Below, in pieces: positions 2,887 through 31,804 of a stretch of 64,000 nucleotides of DNA. Below the pieces are notes generated by a model. That model ran no database searches, had not been told where the DNA came from, and saw only the letters and a list, made by a program, of their open reading frames with translations. Location: IMG/VR virus record IMGVR_UViG_3300021400_003144; one strand, written 5' to 3'. Position 1 is the stretch's first letter. Each line of letters opens with the position of its first letter. The DNA is from a virus (lineage: Duplodnaviria > Caudoviricetes). Position numbers and translations under genes: made by a program.

Positions 2887-3225
2887 GAACCCTTTTATAG
2901 GGATTAACTGATATTAGCTAAAGGTAAGCATTTGAATTTGCTCCTTTTAGCATTGGAACCCTGTTATAGGGATTGAAACATACAGCACTATACATTGCAG
3001 AAATTTTCACAGATAGAACCCTGTTATAGGGATTAAATGCTTCAGATAGATTTGTAGAAGTCTAGAATTGTATAGATAGAACCCTTGTAATAGGGATTGA
3101 GTGTTTATAGACAAGGTAGTACCTTTAGGAATATGTTTAAACCCTGTTATAGGGATTGACTTATGATTGTACAATCAACGTGTAAGTATTAAGTATTTAA
3201 ACTGAACCCTGTTATAGGGATTAGA
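2887..3225 (+). CRISPR. CRISPR mini-array 1 (6 degenerate repeats, 5 spacers)
   Basis: Repeat core (G/A)AACCCT-N5/6-AGGGATT starts at 2887, 2956, 3016, 3079, 3139 and 3204 (period 60-69). Spacers are unique. Lies next to cas10. Confidence 0.9.
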
Positions 3226-3264
3226 TACACCTTTAAATCAAATGGTTTAAAGGTGTAATTTTTT
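3226..3264 (+). terminator. Intrinsic terminator closing array 1
   Basis: TACACCTTTAAA...TTTAAAGGTGTA stem followed by a T tract. Confidence 0.8.
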
Positions 3265-3277
3265 GTGTAAAAATATG

Positions 3278-3306
3278 TTGACAAAATTATAAAAAAGTGA
3301 TATGAT
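3278..3306 (+). promoter_or_regulatory. SigmaA-type promoter for cas operon
   Basis: TTGACA-17bp-TATGAT. Confidence 0.8.
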
Positions 3307-3349
3307 ATATAAAGAAATTAAGAGTTATGTAACTCAGAAAGGATAATGA

Positions 3350-5227
3350 ATGGTAGACGAAAAATGTAAAGAGCTTTATATAGCAGGTCTACTCCATGAT
3401 GTAGGTAAGTATATACATAAGACTAATGGCAATAAGGCTTCTCATGAGATATTATCTCAGTTGTTTATTTTAGATAATCCTGAGATTTGTATTGGGGCTG
3501 ATGTTGAGAAAATAGCTAACATTGTAGCCAATCATCATGACAGAGGAAAGTATGATAAAAGCTTTGTAGGAAATTTAAAGATAACTCCTGATAAAGTGGT
3601 GTCTGCTGAACTTTGTAAGAAAGCTTATGATAACTATAAGTTGGACTGCTATAAGAGTGAGATAGACATTATTAAAAAGGCTGATAGCTTATCAGCTTCA
3701 TCAGACAGAGCATCTGAGACTGGAGAGTCAGGAAATGGAACAAGTGCTCCATATGCTCCACTAATATCTCCTATTGGAAAAGTATTCAATAAGAGATTAG
3801 CAGTAAGACATGGTAATTCTTACTGTGTTTACAACTTTAGTGGGGATACTGATACTAAAGAAGTTATCATGGAGCTTGATAAGAATTGTGATGAACATAT
3901 AGAGAGTTCCTTTGAGTCTTTCATGAATGACATAAAGGCTATAAAGAGTCTGAATGACCTTGATGATATTCTGAAAAAGCATTGGTCAACTGTCAATGCC
4001 AATACATGGAGACCTAAGGGAGAATCTTTAGGAAACACAACTACTTCCTTGTATGACCATAGTAAAACTACAGCGGCTTTGGCTGTAGGGGCATATCTAA
4101 ATAAATGTGCTGGTGTGGCTGTGGATGATATGTTTGTTTACAGAGTAGTATACAATGGAAATAACAGAAGTCTTGAGGATATTGTTGATAATCTTTTGAA
4201 TGAGATTGGACTATCTCAGTTACATGTAATAAGTTCTACTGATGATGAGGTTTATGCAATTATACCTTATATAAAGTCATTAGAATTTGTAGAAGGTCTG
4301 AGTAAAGAGAACATAATATCTTTTAAGGATTTTGGAGAGACAATAGACTACTTTGTAGCTAAGCATTGGAAATTTAAGGGTTGCAGAGATTCTTTTAGAG
4401 ATAGACTTGGAGAGTGTCAGTATGGTATAACTAAAGTCTTAGGTAAAGTAGATGCAGGCATTGGAGCTGATACTTATATAGCAGATAGACTTGATAGTAA
4501 GTTTATAGGTGGCTATGTAATAGATGGTTATGACTATATACTTGAACATGTACTAACTGAGAATGACTCCATTAGTAAGCTGAGTACTACCTTTAGAATA
4601 TTTGAAGCATTTAATAGAGAAGTAACTAAACTTCTTGACAACAAGGGTAAAATGGTACTCAAGTCTGAACTTGATAAGACTATTTATTCAGCTGATAACA
4701 TTGAGGAAGTGCATAGGATTGAAGTAGAGATACAGTCAATATTTGAGAAGTACTTCGGAGATGCTACAGGGTTGTACTTTACATACTCTAAGTATGACAG
4801 ATATAGCAATACAGTAGAAATGTTGGACAGAGAATTTAATACTAGAGGTGCTAGTCTGAATATTGAGAAGAAGCTTCAGAATGGAGGTCTGTACACTACA
4901 GTTCTTATAGATACTAAGAGATATAAGATAAATAGTTTAAAGATATATAATGAATATGTTGGGTATCTGAGTAAGTGTGATAAATCCTTCTTGTATAAAG
5001 CAAAGCAGATGTATGATGAGCTGTTTAAGTATAACATTGATAAAGACCCTATACATCTTGTAGCTAAGTCAAGACTGTACTATATGAAGTCAAAGGCAGA
5101 TGGAAATAAGGTAAATGTACTTAATGAGATATATAAGTGTGCATTTGATTCTGCAAAAGGTCAGATTAGTGATAATGCATACATAATATATGAAGCATTA
5201 AAAAATGTGTTAACCAATGTGAAGTAA
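3350..5227 (+). CDS. cas10: Cas10/Csm1-like large subunit, HD nuclease motifs intact, cyclase motif degenerate
   Basis: Has AGLLHDVGK, VANHH, IKKADSLSA and SLYDHSKTTAALA (Csm1 hallmark). SISKLSTTFRIF aligns to the Palm2 SR.ATLSR region. GGDD is absent (probably VLKSELDK). Confidence 0.88.
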   Translation: MVDEKCKELYIAGLLHDVGKYIHKTNGNKASHEILSQLFILDNPEICIGADVEKIANIVANHHDRGKYDKSFVGNLKITPDKVVSAELCKKAYDNYKLDCYKSEIDIIKKADSLSASSDRASETGESGNGTSAPYAPLISPIGKVFNKRLAVRHGNSYCVYNFSGDTDTKEVIMELDKNCDEHIESSFESFMNDIKAIKSLNDLDDILKKHWSTVNANTWRPKGESLGNTTTSLYDHSKTTAALAVGAYLNKCAGVAVDDMFVYRVVYNGNNRSLEDIVDNLLNEIGLSQLHVISSTDDEVYAIIPYIKSLEFVEGLSKENIISFKDFGETIDYFVAKHWKFKGCRDSFRDRLGECQYGITKVLGKVDAGIGADTYIADRLDSKFIGGYVIDGYDYILEHVLTENDSISKLSTTFRIFEAFNREVTKLLDNKGKMVLKSELDKTIYSADNIEEVHRIEVEIQSIFEKYFGDATGLYFTYSKYDRYSNTVEMLDREFNTRGASLNIEKKLQNGGLYTTVLIDTKRYKINSLKIYNEYVGYLSKCDKSFLYKAKQMYDELFKYNIDKDPIHLVAKSRLYYMKSKADGNKVNVLNEIYKCAFDSAKGQISDNAYIIYEALKNVLTNVK

Positions 5228-5236
5228 GGAGTATAC

Positions 5237-5719
5237 ATGGACGATAATTATTTAAAGGAAATCAAGTCTGGATATACAGACAATGGTGTAGCTAAGCTGA
5301 GTCTGATTGATGGATATCCTCAGAAGTTAGCTAAGGAGTTTAATGAAGCAACTCCAATGTTGTCAACAAAGCAATCAAGAAGTATCTTTGATACTGTGAA
5401 TGGACTTGAGGTTAAGCTTCGTAGAAAGTCAGTATCATTTGATGAAGTCAAGATTGAACTTGGACTACTTAAGTCTAGAATAAATGATAAGGTTAATAAG
5501 GGAAGTATCCCTAAGGTATTCTTTGAGTTCTTTGAGGAAAATATTAAAGCCATTAAGAATGAAAAGGATTTACAGGTGTTTAAGATTCATCTTGAGTCAA
5601 TTTGTAACTATCTCAAGGATGATAAGCAGACTGGAAATAACGGAAGCTACAATAAGGGTACAGGCTATAATGGAAATTATAGACCTAGAACAAATGGATA
5701 TAATAACAATAGAAGATGA
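5237..5719 (+). CDS. csm2: Csm2 (Cas11) small subunit
   Basis: STKQSRSIFD and FKIHLESICNY match the Csm2 TxQxRxF and FxxxxExxxxY motifs. Position after cas10. Confidence 0.8.
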   Translation: MDDNYLKEIKSGYTDNGVAKLSLIDGYPQKLAKEFNEATPMLSTKQSRSIFDTVNGLEVKLRRKSVSFDEVKIELGLLKSRINDKVNKGSIPKVFFEFFEENIKAIKNEKDLQVFKIHLESICNYLKDDKQTGNNGSYNKGTGYNGNYRPRTNGYNNNRR

Positions 5720-5736
5720 AAGTGAGGATATAAATT

Positions 5737-31140: not shown

Positions 31141-31261
31141 GAACCCTTGTAATGGGGATTGAATACTTAAATATTATTTTGTTGATACTTATTATCTAGA
31201 ACTTATCTACTATAATAAAAACATAGATGATAAGTTAAAGAACCCTAGTTGGGGATTGTAT
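31141..31261 (+). CRISPR. CRISPR mini-array 7 (2 repeats, 75-nt insert with hairpin)
   Basis: GAACCCTTGTAATGGGGATTGAAT at 31141 and GAACCCTAGTTGGGGATTGTA at 31240. Confidence 0.75.
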
Positions 31262-31276
31262 CAAAAAGATTAATAG

Positions 31277-31317
31277 TAAAACAGGGATGTTGGGGTCTAA
31301 CAGCATCCCTGTTTTTA
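31277..31317 (+). terminator. Intrinsic terminator closing array 7
   Basis: AAAACAGGGATGTTG...CAGCATCCCTGTTTTT. Confidence 0.85.
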
Positions 31318-31349
31318 TTTTTTAAATAAAAAATTTTAGATAATAAGTA

Positions 31350-31378
31350 TTGAAAAAACAAGATTTAGGTGATATAAT
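31350..31378 (+). promoter_or_regulatory. SigmaA-type promoter
   Basis: TTGAAA-17bp-TATAAT with an extended TG. Confidence 0.75.
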
Positions 31379-31423
31379 ATATAAAGATTGTAAAGTATTG
31401 TGAAATAGATATAGGAGTTTAAT

Positions 31424-31756
31424 ATGCAGGAGTATTATTTTTATACTCTCATCAAGAATGAGAACGGTGCTATTGTATTAGACGAAAAGTCAGTAATGCT
31501 AAAGGAAACAGATCATAGAATAACTGACCCTGACAAGAATTGTTTTCCTCATAGTTATAGATGGACAGTAGACAAGCTAATGTTAGGCGTTGTAGATACA
31601 GAATATCTTGAAGATAATTGTGTATGTAGCATTATTCTGGACGAGTGTAATAAGGATAGAGCAGCTTCTCTTATTAAGGAGTATCTTAATAAAGATATTG
31701 AGATGCTTCTTAGTCAAGTATTAACTTTAACTGAGTTAAAAGATGCTATAGATTAA
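31424..31756 (+). CDS. Hypothetical protein
   Basis: AGGAG RBS, downstream of the promoter. Confidence 0.7.
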   Translation: MQEYYFYTLIKNENGAIVLDEKSVMLKETDHRITDPDKNCFPHSYRWTVDKLMLGVVDTEYLEDNCVCSIILDECNKDRAASLIKEYLNKDIEMLLSQVLTLTELKDAID

Positions 31757-31781
31757 GATTAGGAGTGGGATTTAATGTAAA

Positions 31782-31804
31782 GAACCCTTGTGATAGGGAT
31801 TGAG
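31782..31804 (+). CRISPR. Solitary CRISPR repeat
   Basis: GAACCCTTGTGATAGGGATTGAG between two genes, with no partner repeat nearby. Confidence 0.75.

Follow-up and report, generated by a model that had tools for sequence, protein, structure and literature searches.

The window, the whole 64,000-nucleotide stretch of DNA analyzed here, belongs to a giant gut phage whose contig is at least 283 kb long. It carries a cas10-csm2-csm3-csm4-cas6e operon at 3350-7717, between the first and second of a series of repeat arrays (Table 1). Solved Csm3 structures match the phage Csm3 at 1e-40, and its catalytic aspartate (IDNPV segment) aligns with theirs; the glycine-rich loop of the Cas6e-like protein aligns with E. 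coli CasE. The GGDD cyclase motif is absent from the window Cas10 and from those of five relatives (six family members examined), whose Csm3 proteins are 64-75% identical to that of the phage. We found no Csm5 in the window region searched, and neither adaptation genes (Cas1, Cas2, Cas4) nor Csm6 or another CARF effector are in view. The nearest bacterial Csm3 is at most 48% identical.

Table 1. Features of the cas operon and repeat loci, in window coordinates
Feature	Position	Strand	Details
Array 1	2882..3226	+	6 repeats, 5 spacers; 12 nt past stop of gene 2315-2869; ends upstream transcription unit
Intrinsic terminator closing array 1	3226..3257	+	14-bp stem, T run, -16.7 kcal
Near-consensus sigma-70 promoter of cas operon	3278..3306	+	TTGACA-17-TATGAT, 11/12
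Cas10/Csm1-like large subunit, 625 aa	3350..5227	+	HD motif present; TIGR02578 match partial, below cut-off
Csm2 (Cas11) small subunit	5237..5719	+	PF03750
Csm3 (Cas7)	5737..6375	+	TIGR02582, 182 bits (cut-off 90)
Csm4 (Cas5)-like subunit	6388..7089	+	Match below curated cut-off
Cas6e/CasE-like endoribonuclease	7079..7717	+	PF08798, 56 bits (cut-off 25)
Array 2	7759..8150	+	7 repeats, 6 spacers; 41 nt past cas6e stop
Orphan membrane-anchored protein between arrays 2 and 3	8169..8876	+	No homologue except itself in the protein search
Array 3	8899..9051	+	3 repeats, 2 spacers; TTTTAT loop variant common to last repeat of array 2
Intrinsic terminator closing cas-array unit/array 3	~9066..9113	+	-17.6 kcal; followed by promoter 9134-9162
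Array 4	18756..18839	+	2 repeats, 1 spacer; flanked by methyltransferase gene and GNAT gene
Array 5	27915..28255	+	6 repeats, 5 spacers; longest, most uniform repeat (27 nt)
Array 6	29323..29413	+	2 repeats, 1 spacer; repeat variant as in array 5
Array 7	31136..31263	+	2 repeats 99 nt apart; 4 nt past stop of gene 30271-31131
Intrinsic terminator closing array 7	~31283..31325	+	-14.6 kcal; followed by promoter 31350-31378
Solitary repeat (locus 8)	31778..31806	+	Between genes 31424-31756 and 31881-32639; no spacer

The repeats were sought with a pattern proposed by an earlier sequence-only reading of this DNA, AACCCY-N4-7-RGGGATT, and then with a profile built from its exact matches. The pattern gave 26 exact matches in the window, all on the + strand, and none in 100 dinucleotide-preserving shuffles; the profile added three weaker copies, at 7881, 18761 and 28231. 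The resulting 29 repeats in eight loci reproduce exactly the co-oriented set of about 29 that had been described (6, 7, 3, 2, 6, 2, 2 and 1 per locus), and no further copy lies in the window beyond 31806. The count of eight loci stands inside the window, but a ninth, of 16 repeats, had been missed 1.9 kb before it (-2831 to -1902 in window numbering; 1433-2362 of contig L001). The total is 45 copies of one repeat family in nine co-oriented loci across about 34.6 kb. A second scaffold of the same assembly carries a two-repeat locus with the same repeat, beside a methyltransferase gene and far from any cas gene.

Within loci the repeats start 54-72 nt apart, with the exception of the long gap in array 7, and the 35 ordinary spacers are each unique and 26-42 nt long. 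Seven loci begin 4-47 nt past a stop codon, in keeping with the short distances first reported, and locus 6 about 240 nt past one. Routine finders had been expected to miss most of the arrays; indeed, Tandem Repeats Finder reported none of them, and the public gene call places two spurious small ORFs inside array 2. Because a cas operon encoding a Cas6e-like protein lies between loci 1 and 2, we conclude that the loci are genuine CRISPR arrays and belong to a type III-A-like system encoded by the phage.

The neighbors of the arrays are accessory genes of a variable region. They encode an RNA repair enzyme, two methyltransferases, a STAND NTPase, a NERD-like protein, a GNAT acetyltransferase, BspA-like proteins and the orphan membrane protein, which has no homologue except itself among 5.8 billion proteins. 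The last repeat of array 2 lies 20 nt ahead of the point where the next gene has its ribosome-binding site and start, and that of array 6 just 5' of the ribosome-binding site of gene 29437. The sequence-only reading had drawn no link between the repeats and the cas operon and had offered no origin for their layout.

Repeat hairpins and spacer content

The repeats share a conserved 4-bp hairpin followed by AUU(G), and nothing but the CCCU/AGGG stem and the AUU(G) is near-invariant. In 44 of the 45 copies the stem is fully paired and the GGGAUU junction intact, while neighboring positions vary; one copy, at 7887, has a broken stem. Across the 45 copies the loop takes 21 forms and the handle many (ATTAACTG, ATTGCATA and others), so the repeats within an array are not near-identical. 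When the relatives are included, all 118 repeats can form the 4-bp stem, in a search that chose the best loop length and thereby favors pairing. At the innermost position 69 repeats have a T-A pair, 38 have C-G and 11 have T-G, CCTC/GAGG variants also occur, and loops and handle tails vary freely. This is the pattern expected for Cas6 recognition and points to selection on the hairpin. The repeat anatomy, a short GC stem and then an 8-nt handle, fits Cas6e-type processing, and cleavage is predicted. A bacterial relative (L018) has the usual identical 37-nt repeats. The repeat pattern has no match in the species-representative genomes of 185,579 prokaryotes, and none of the Rfam CRISPR repeat families matches the repeat.

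In composition the spacers do not look like local sequence: they have a GC skew of 0.02, whereas the genome has 0.35, and C exceeds G in 16 of the 36 spacers analyzed, compared with 9% of random 33-mers. About half are sense-like in composition, and some units may therefore not be working guides. The spacer of array 4 is antisense to a conserved C-terminal coding segment of the neighboring methyltransferase's family, and it matches the phage's own two methyltransferase copies at 25/35 and 27/35 nt. An exact protospacer was found nowhere searched, and there were no significant matches in the phage collection. Rival phages are the likely targets of the guides, and a methyltransferase-directed guide beside methyltransferase genes provides a concrete case of possible phage-versus-phage targeting of an anti-restriction gene. 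Array 1, directly before the cas promoter, recalls the regulatory mini-arrays with degenerate repeats near cas genes (Shmakov et al. 2023, bioRxiv 10.1101/2023.03.03.530964). Unlike those, the spacers of arrays 1-3 are no more complementary than expected by chance to the promoter, leader or genes of the cas operon, and autoregulation of the cas locus by these arrays is not supported.

Relatives and the origin of the dispersed layout

Comparing locus occupancy in related genomes had been suggested as a check on the dispersal. Each of the five relatives (L002, L003, L005, L009 and L012) has one array, directly after cas6e, and their flanks hold no second array (the downstream flanks are short in L005 and L009). 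Seen in none of the five, the dispersed layout is apparently derived. In the closest relative, L005, the array is followed by homologues (62-75% aa identity) of window genes 34362-34760 and 35070-35465, a synteny drawn from one relative contig of 11.8 kb. The place of its single 1.3-kb array is thus taken in the window by arrays 2-8 together with some 24 kb of genes. The L005 array also has one spacer in common (31/34) with the upstream 16-repeat locus. Repeat variants run on across the cassettes, with the last repeat of array 2 matching array 3 and array 5 matching arrays 6-8. The single-array relatives, the flank synteny, the common spacer, these continuous variants and the orphan status of the gene between arrays 2 and 3 are most simply read as the insertion of about 24 kb of accessory cassettes into a single ancestral array. 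The same picture would follow from a deletion between direct repeats in L005. Two loci are not accounted for by simple splitting of a post-cas6e array: the one upstream of cas10 and the two-repeat one on the second scaffold.

Eco57I-like methyltransferase genes adjoin arrays in three contexts (array 4 of the window, relative L003 and the second scaffold, L097). Together with the guide against that family and the variants across cassettes, this hints at a cassette platform, an idea that we advance tentatively, as possible but doubtful. By analogy with integron attC sites, the repeats might serve as recombination points for the gain, loss and swapping of accessory genes. Cas6 might then separate messages and guides, and each cassette gained would come ready for expression, flanked by guides directed at phages without it. 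The layout suggests that accessory genes may come to settle preferentially in a CRISPR array. If this is borne out, array finders and cas-locus surveys undercount viral CRISPR content.

Expression of the arrays and competing explanations

Phage-borne CRISPR is known, and little is understood of how such systems maintain and express guides where adaptation genes and leaders are missing. A leader with a promoter is a usual feature of arrays, not a strictly defining one; none of the present arrays shows an AT-rich leader with a promoter at its end. A sigma-70 scan, which is blind to phage-specific promoters, gave nothing above background ahead of the arrays (0-3 weak matches per 300 nt; background 1.8), in agreement with the initial description of the loci as leaderless. 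Near-consensus promoters (-3666, 3278, 9134, 31350) lie just 3' of strong terminators, at terminator-promoter junctions away from array starts (-3701/-3666, 3258/3278, 9103/9134, 31310/31350). The terminators that had been placed directly after arrays 1, 3 and 7 proved to be strong intrinsic ones. Because no promoter precedes the arrays and strong promoters sit after terminators, read-through from neighboring genes appears to be the best reading of how the arrays are transcribed.

The transcription unit of the cas operon itself, from the promoter at 3278 to the terminator at about 9113, takes in arrays 2 and 3, and array 1 ends the unit immediately upstream of the cas promoter. The proposal that arrays ride behind ordinary genes therefore fails for arrays 2 and 3, which belong to the cas transcript; it stands for the others, with the qualification that their neighbors are accessory, not core, genes. 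That the loci form one repertoire is borne out by the single repeat family, the single orientation and the cognate cas operon, with its Cas6e-like enzyme, among the arrays. Four of about five array-bearing units start from similar near-consensus host-type promoters (the array 4 unit has no clear consensus promoter). This suggests common early expression and weakens the idea that guide sets follow differing schedules.

We consider it probable, from the sequence comparisons, that this is a type III-A-like phage system with dispersed promoterless arrays, expressed by read-through, released by the Cas6e-like enzyme and scattered by insertion. Arrays without their own promoters would be transcribed within about five operons, the cas operon included. 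The Cas6e-like enzyme would cut at the 3' base of the hairpin, yielding guides that bear an 8-nt handle of the AUUGAAUN type. Such guides would load into the Cas10-Csm complex, which would cut complementary RNA via Csm3, and probably DNA via the HD domain, without cyclic-oligoadenylate signaling. Most likely, accessory cassettes inserted into, or recombined at, the ancestral array beside cas6e, and the split pieces could stay functional since read-through and Cas6 cutting require no leader. A phage may, the data suggest, scatter one guide repertoire over several operons and release the guides by read-through and a Cas6e-like enzyme.

Most or all arrays might instead have phage-specific or weak promoters of their own and form independent small units close behind genes. 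A large phage may encode an RNA polymerase or sigma factor with unfamiliar motifs, the gap upstream of locus 6 holds three weak promoter-like matches, and the array 4 unit has no clear consensus promoter. Yet seven loci leave only 4-47 nt after the stop codon, the nine first repeats have no common upstream motif (judged by eye), upstream promoter-like matches are at or below background and the strong promoters sit away from the arrays, which makes separate promoters unlikely. We also weighed whether working guides are stored only in the larger uniform arrays (upstream 16-repeat locus, array 5), with the small, heterogeneous loci decaying as remnants of rearrangement that do nothing themselves. 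Conservation of stem and junction in all copies but one, amid varying neighboring positions, argues against decay, as do the well-formed antisense guide of array 4 and the equal repeat heterogeneity of single-array relatives, which marks it as a family trait. Loops and tails are nevertheless most divergent in arrays 1 and 2, where the broken stem also lies, the array 7 interval is over-long at 71 nt, there is at most one spacer in each of loci 4, 6, 7 and 8, and no adaptation genes are in view for renewal. On this evidence we judge decay distinctly unlikely.

The chief role of the repeats could also be to punctuate polycistronic messages through Cas6, separating the cistrons and fixing their 5' ends, with guides secondary. 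This would account for the solitary, spacerless repeat at 31783 and for last repeats lying 20-60 nt 5' of the next ribosome-binding site (upstream locus, arrays 2, 4 and 6). It is very unlikely given that most copies stand in regular arrays with unique 30-37 nt spacers, needless for punctuation, that relatives keep whole arrays at one place and that there is an apparent target family for one spacer. Solitary repeats and mini-arrays of viruses are known to serve as decoys (RNA anti-CRISPRs) or to borrow host Cas proteins (PMC11656645). The chance that the present repeats do so is negligible: next to the arrays the phage encodes an effector and a Cas6e-like enzyme of its own that are cognate to them, the species-representative prokaryote genomes yielded no match to the repeat pattern, Rfam no match, and the bacterial Csm3 proteins are distant.

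In the CRISPR-Cas systems of huge phages, arrays are compact (median six repeats) with adjoining effectors, and type III goes unmentioned in the part of that survey drawn on here (Al-Shayeb et al. 2020, PMC7162821). On that part, the present system is alike in its phage of more than 200 kb, the absence of Cas1, Cas2 and Cas4 from view, its compact arrays and its supposed rival-phage targets. It differs in having at least nine leaderless array pieces over about 34 kb among accessory genes, short and heterogeneous repeats, and a cyclase-dead type III effector with a Cas6e-like enzyme. Virus-borne mini-CRISPR arrays copy the host repeat, depend on host Cas and aim at related viruses (Medvedeva et al. 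2019, PMC6858448; PMC11656645). Array 4 and the second-scaffold locus resemble these leaderless one- or two-spacer arrays; unlike them (PMC6858448), this phage supplies its own Cas6 and effector, and the genome search gave no host match to its repeat.

The effector resembles the type III-A Csm complexes of Streptococcus thermophilus and Staphylococcus epidermidis (PDB 6ifn, 6nue, 7uzw) in its cas10-csm2-csm3-csm4 order, Csm3 catalytic aspartate, hairpin repeat with 8-nt handle, and spacer length. It departs from them in lacking GGDD, with no Csm5, Csm6/CARF effector or Cas1/Cas2 in view, in having a Cas6e-like enzyme, not the usual type III Cas6, and in its short large subunit. It appears to be a compact type III effector, RNA-guided and signaling-free, whose demands on the repeat are very relaxed. 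Like the reduced subtypes III-C, III-G as well as III-H, whose Cas10 cyclase is inactive (Makarova et al. 2025, PMC12669027), it has lost signaling and ancillary effectors, has no adaptation module, and has an apparently active HD domain. In III-G and III-H, Cas7 has no catalytic aspartate, and III-H has lost a separate Cas11 (PMC12669027); the phage keeps both the Csm3 catalytic aspartate and a separate Csm2 (Cas11).

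Repeat census and the extent of the repertoire

A scan for AACCCY-N4-7-RGGGATT, as the sequence-only reading had proposed, gave 26 matches in the window, all 26 on the + strand, compared to none in 100 dinucleotide-preserving shuffles. A profile made from these exact copies added three weaker repeats, at 7881, 18761 and 28231. The resulting total, 29 co-oriented repeats at eight loci, is exactly the tally that the reading had claimed, and neither pattern nor profile found any more between 31806 and 64000. Repeats start every 54-72 nt inside loci, except for a 99-nt gap in array 7, and the spacers (26-42 nt) are different in each interval between window repeats. 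The 71-nt interval of array 7 (31166-31236) contains TAGAAC at a distance fitting a middle repeat, with no recognisable stem, and may represent a decayed repeat. The expectation that such arrays escape routine tools also held: Tandem Repeats Finder reported none of the window's arrays, and the public gene call places two small ORFs in array 2.

The window is part of a 282,865-bp metagenomic scaffold, and its upstream flank (L001) carries a ninth locus, the largest piece of the repertoire. Two small genes lie on one side of this locus and a seven-gene cassette with a serpin (L001 3208-4485) on the other. Together, window and upstream flank hold 45 repeats and 36 spacers across 34.6 kb.

Repeat loci, genes and transcription units in the window and its upstream flank (window positions; negative values lie in the flank)
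Feature	Position	Strand	Details
Ninth locus	-2831 to -1902	+	16 repeats; L001 1433-2362
Array 1	2882-3226	+	6 repeats
Array 2	7759-8150	+	7 repeats
Array 3	8899-9051	+	3 repeats
Array 4	18756-18839	+	2 repeats
Array 5	27915-28255	+	6 repeats
Array 6	29323-29413	+	2 repeats
Array 7	31136-31263	+	2 repeats
Solitary repeat (locus 8)	31778-31806	+	1 repeat
Cas operon	3350-7717	+	five genes
Cas10/Csm1-like protein		+	625 aa; HD domain
Csm2		+	PF03750 match
Csm3		+	TIGR02582, 182 bits vs cut-off 90
Csm4-like protein		+	in cas operon
Cas6e/CasE-like protein		+	PF08798, 56 bits
Polynucleotide kinase, metallophosphatase and T4-type RNA ligase fusion	9194-11431	+	745 aa; phrog_8238, 1e-210; best matches in large Bacillota phages; first gene of unit after array 3
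Eco57I-like methyltransferase paralogues	16421-18718, 20135-21484	+	flank array 4 mini-array
Unit A	from -3666	+	two small genes, 16-repeat locus, seven genes with serpin, array 1, terminator
Unit B	from 3278	+	five cas genes, array 2, orphan gene, array 3, terminator
Unit with array 4	from ~16.4 kb	+	
Unit with arrays 5, 6 and 7	start probably near 24.6-24.9 kb	+	terminator 31310
Unit with solitary repeat	from 31350	+	

A reduced type III-A-like operon and its hairpin repeats

All genes of the window lie on the + strand, in DNA of about 31% GC with strong GC skew, and their content resembles that of a phage. The five-gene cas operon occupies the stretch from locus 1 to locus 2. Its Csm3 aligns to solved Csm3 structures (1e-40) with the catalytic Asp retained, and the Cas6e-like protein aligns to E. 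coli CasE across the glycine-rich loop. The GGDD motif is absent from the large subunit of the window phage and of five relatives, in which the equivalent segment reads G/A/C-G-Y/F, and we saw no Cas1, Cas2, Csm5, Csm6 or CARF protein around the window's operon. Judged by its genes, this is a phage-borne, reduced type III-A-like system predicted to work without signalling. The gene that separates arrays 2 and 3 was considered for the missing Csm5 or an ancillary cas gene and rejected, as it has no family match, no homologue and an N-terminal membrane anchor.

Several of these features have precedents. Huge-phage CRISPR systems with compact arrays and no adaptation genes have been described (PMC7162821), as have dead-cyclase type III subtypes (PMC12669027). 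Viral leaderless mini-arrays and solitary repeats are also known (PMC6858448, PMC11656645), but those are served by host Cas proteins, whereas the window phage has its own Cas6e-like enzyme and Csm complex. We found no account of a single repertoire that is split over several operons, interleaved with accessory genes, and served by the phage's own Cas6e-like enzyme and cyclase-dead Csm complex.

The accessory genes between arrays encode an RNA-repair enzyme, two methyltransferases, a STAND NTPase, a NERD-like protein, a GNAT acetyltransferase, BspA-like repeat proteins and an SH3b membrane protein. The 745-aa fusion is a typical RNA-repair counter-defence gene. The stretch 22268-24592 encodes an nSTAND3-like NTPase and, downstream of it, a protein weakly matching the NERD nuclease; the two may form a defence-like pair within the array zone. 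Outside this zone, the gene at 53881-55095 contains tandem 18-, 33- and 63-nt repeats (54858-55050) with locally raised GC, which encode a low-complexity stretch rich in Gln, Met, Gly, Ala and Pro.

The conserved repeat unit is (A/G)G-AA-CCCU-[5-7 nt loop]-AGGG-AUUG-(AAUN), and this layout, a short GC stem and then an 8-nt handle, is that of a predicted Cas6e substrate. Stems were counted by a script that uses the 3' arm as its anchor, since a MAFFT alignment of the repeats pushed loop-length gaps to the 5' end. Four standard pairs are possible in all 118 repeats from the phage and its relatives, in a best-loop-length search that favours pairing. The innermost pair varies (T-A in 69, C-G in 38, T-G in 11), CCTC/GAGG stem variants occur, the window phage alone has 21 loop forms and the handle tail is free to vary. 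Selection thus appears to act on a protein-recognised hairpin rather than on sequence identity. In contrast, a 374-kb Clostridia-binned contig (L018) whose Csm3 is 46% identical carries a conventional array (13006-14054) of 14 near-identical 37-nt repeats, 13/14 of them identical.

The repeats matched no Rfam family at gathering score, giving sub-threshold CRISPR-DR matches only, and their pattern had no match among 185,579 species genomes. The best 80 bacterial Csm3 relatives are at most 48% identical, and one of the 80 showed a few weak repeat-profile matches. A viral contig collection yielded no relatives by Csm3, by a 22-sequence Csm3 alignment or by repeat pattern.

Transcription signals around the arrays

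Strong intrinsic terminators lie on the + strand at about -3701, 3258, 9103, 16316, 31310 and 32690; those at 3258, 9103 and 31310 close arrays 1, 3 and 7, as had been noted from the sequence. Near-consensus sigma-70 promoters follow four of the six by 20-40 nt (-3666, 3278, 9134 and 31350). Upstream of each first repeat, 300 nt contain zero to three weak promoter-like matches, the background being 1.8 per 300 nt, in a scan that phage-specific promoters would escape. At seven loci, the first repeat lies 4-47 nt past a stop codon, close to the 10-47 nt previously described for seven loci, and at several the last repeat is 20-60 nt ahead of the next gene's ribosome-binding site. Promoter matches near background, together with the proximity of repeats to stop codons and ribosome-binding sites, make read-through the best reading of how the arrays would be transcribed.

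The sequence-only reading had placed one leaderless repertoire behind ordinary genes. One repertoire, the lack of visible leaders and probable read-through all stand, but the context does not, with the cas operon among the arrays and two arrays inside that operon's unit. Different expression schedules for the array-bearing units are unsupported so far; most of these units have similar host-type promoters.

In the gap that separates the cas6e stop from array 2's first repeat is a perfect 10-bp hairpin (7737-7765) that lacks a T run and may serve in processing or stabilisation. The AT-rich inverted repeat ahead of array 4 (18722-18748) resembles it.

Origin of the dispersal and spacer targets

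Metagenomic relatives of Csm3 form a tight cluster (55-75% identity), and five of them were compared together with their flanks (L002, L003, L005, L009 and L012; Csm3 64-75% identical). All five have the same five-gene cas operon and, immediately 3' of cas6e, a single array in which 8-20 hairpin repeats of heterogeneous sequence follow one another. A second array was found in none of the five flanks, the downstream flank being short in L005 and L009. L005, the closest relative and from the window's sample series, has the order cas6e, cas2, one ~1.3-kb array and terminator, followed by two genes whose identity to window genes 34362-34760 and 35070-35465 is 62-75%. In the window, cas6e and those two genes are 26.6 kb apart, with arrays 2-8 and roughly thirty accessory genes in the interval. 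Given the shared flanking genes, this stretch is the positional counterpart of the single L005 array. One spacer is common to the L005 array and the upstream 16-repeat locus (31/34), so that locus is also homologous to the ancestral array.

Repeat variants are continuous across intervening genes: a TTTTAT loop occurs in every repeat of array 3 (three copies) as well as in the final one of array 2, and arrays 5-8 have a TTGYRAT family in common. The simplest account is that cassettes would have inserted repeatedly into one ancestral array. The single array of L005 might instead be the product of deletion between direct repeats, an admissible alternative given that the flank comparison draws on one 11.8-kb contig; however, single arrays occur in more distant relatives too. 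In that contig, a lone type I-E-like cas2 (PF09707; 8934-9194) lies between cas6e and the array, with no cas1, and a GGDEF-domain gene lies upstream of cas10.

The repeat pattern found a further two-repeat mini-array with a terminator on a second, 167,290-bp scaffold (L097 12304-12390, equal to L015 6081-6167) that shares its assembly and composition with the window (GC 0.32, GC skew 0.36); one NCBI assembly includes pieces of both scaffolds. The mini-array follows an Eco57I-like methyltransferase gene and a 72-aa gene, among replication genes. Either the phage has a genome of more than 450 kb, in two scaffolds, or the repeat is shared with a co-resident phage, and under both options not every locus arose by splitting of the cas-adjacent array. 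In three contexts (window array 4, L003 and L097), an array adjoins a methyltransferase gene, which is compatible with, though no proof of, the idea that cassettes carry repeats along or are attracted by them.

Spacers have a GC skew of 0.02, compared to 0.35 for the surrounding strand, and C exceeds G in 16 of 36, compared to 9% of random 33-mers. Because both values differ from those of the genome, the spacers are not local + strand sequence. About half of the 36 (4/5 in array 5) have an antisense-like composition, resembling the complementary strand of genes of similar composition. We found no exact protospacers in 50,697 phage records, where arrays 0, 1 and 5 gave chance-level matches (E 0.1-1), and no targets of one relative's spacers in other relatives' fragments.

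A single spacer, that of array 4 (18781-18815), matches the 68 kb of window and flank above shuffled controls; as no other does, we rejected a cas-regulating (autoregulatory) mini-array. Its reverse complement encodes FTDEELYKK, the most conserved C-terminal segment in an Eco57I-like methyltransferase family. The match is only 25/35 and 27/35 nt to the flanking paralogues, 25/30 nt to the L003 copy and 27/35 nt to a viral contig homologue found by a wobble-degenerate pattern. The two window methyltransferases are only about one-third identical overall to a relative's copy, and they share a near-identical 45-residue C-terminus, the segment to which this spacer is antisense.
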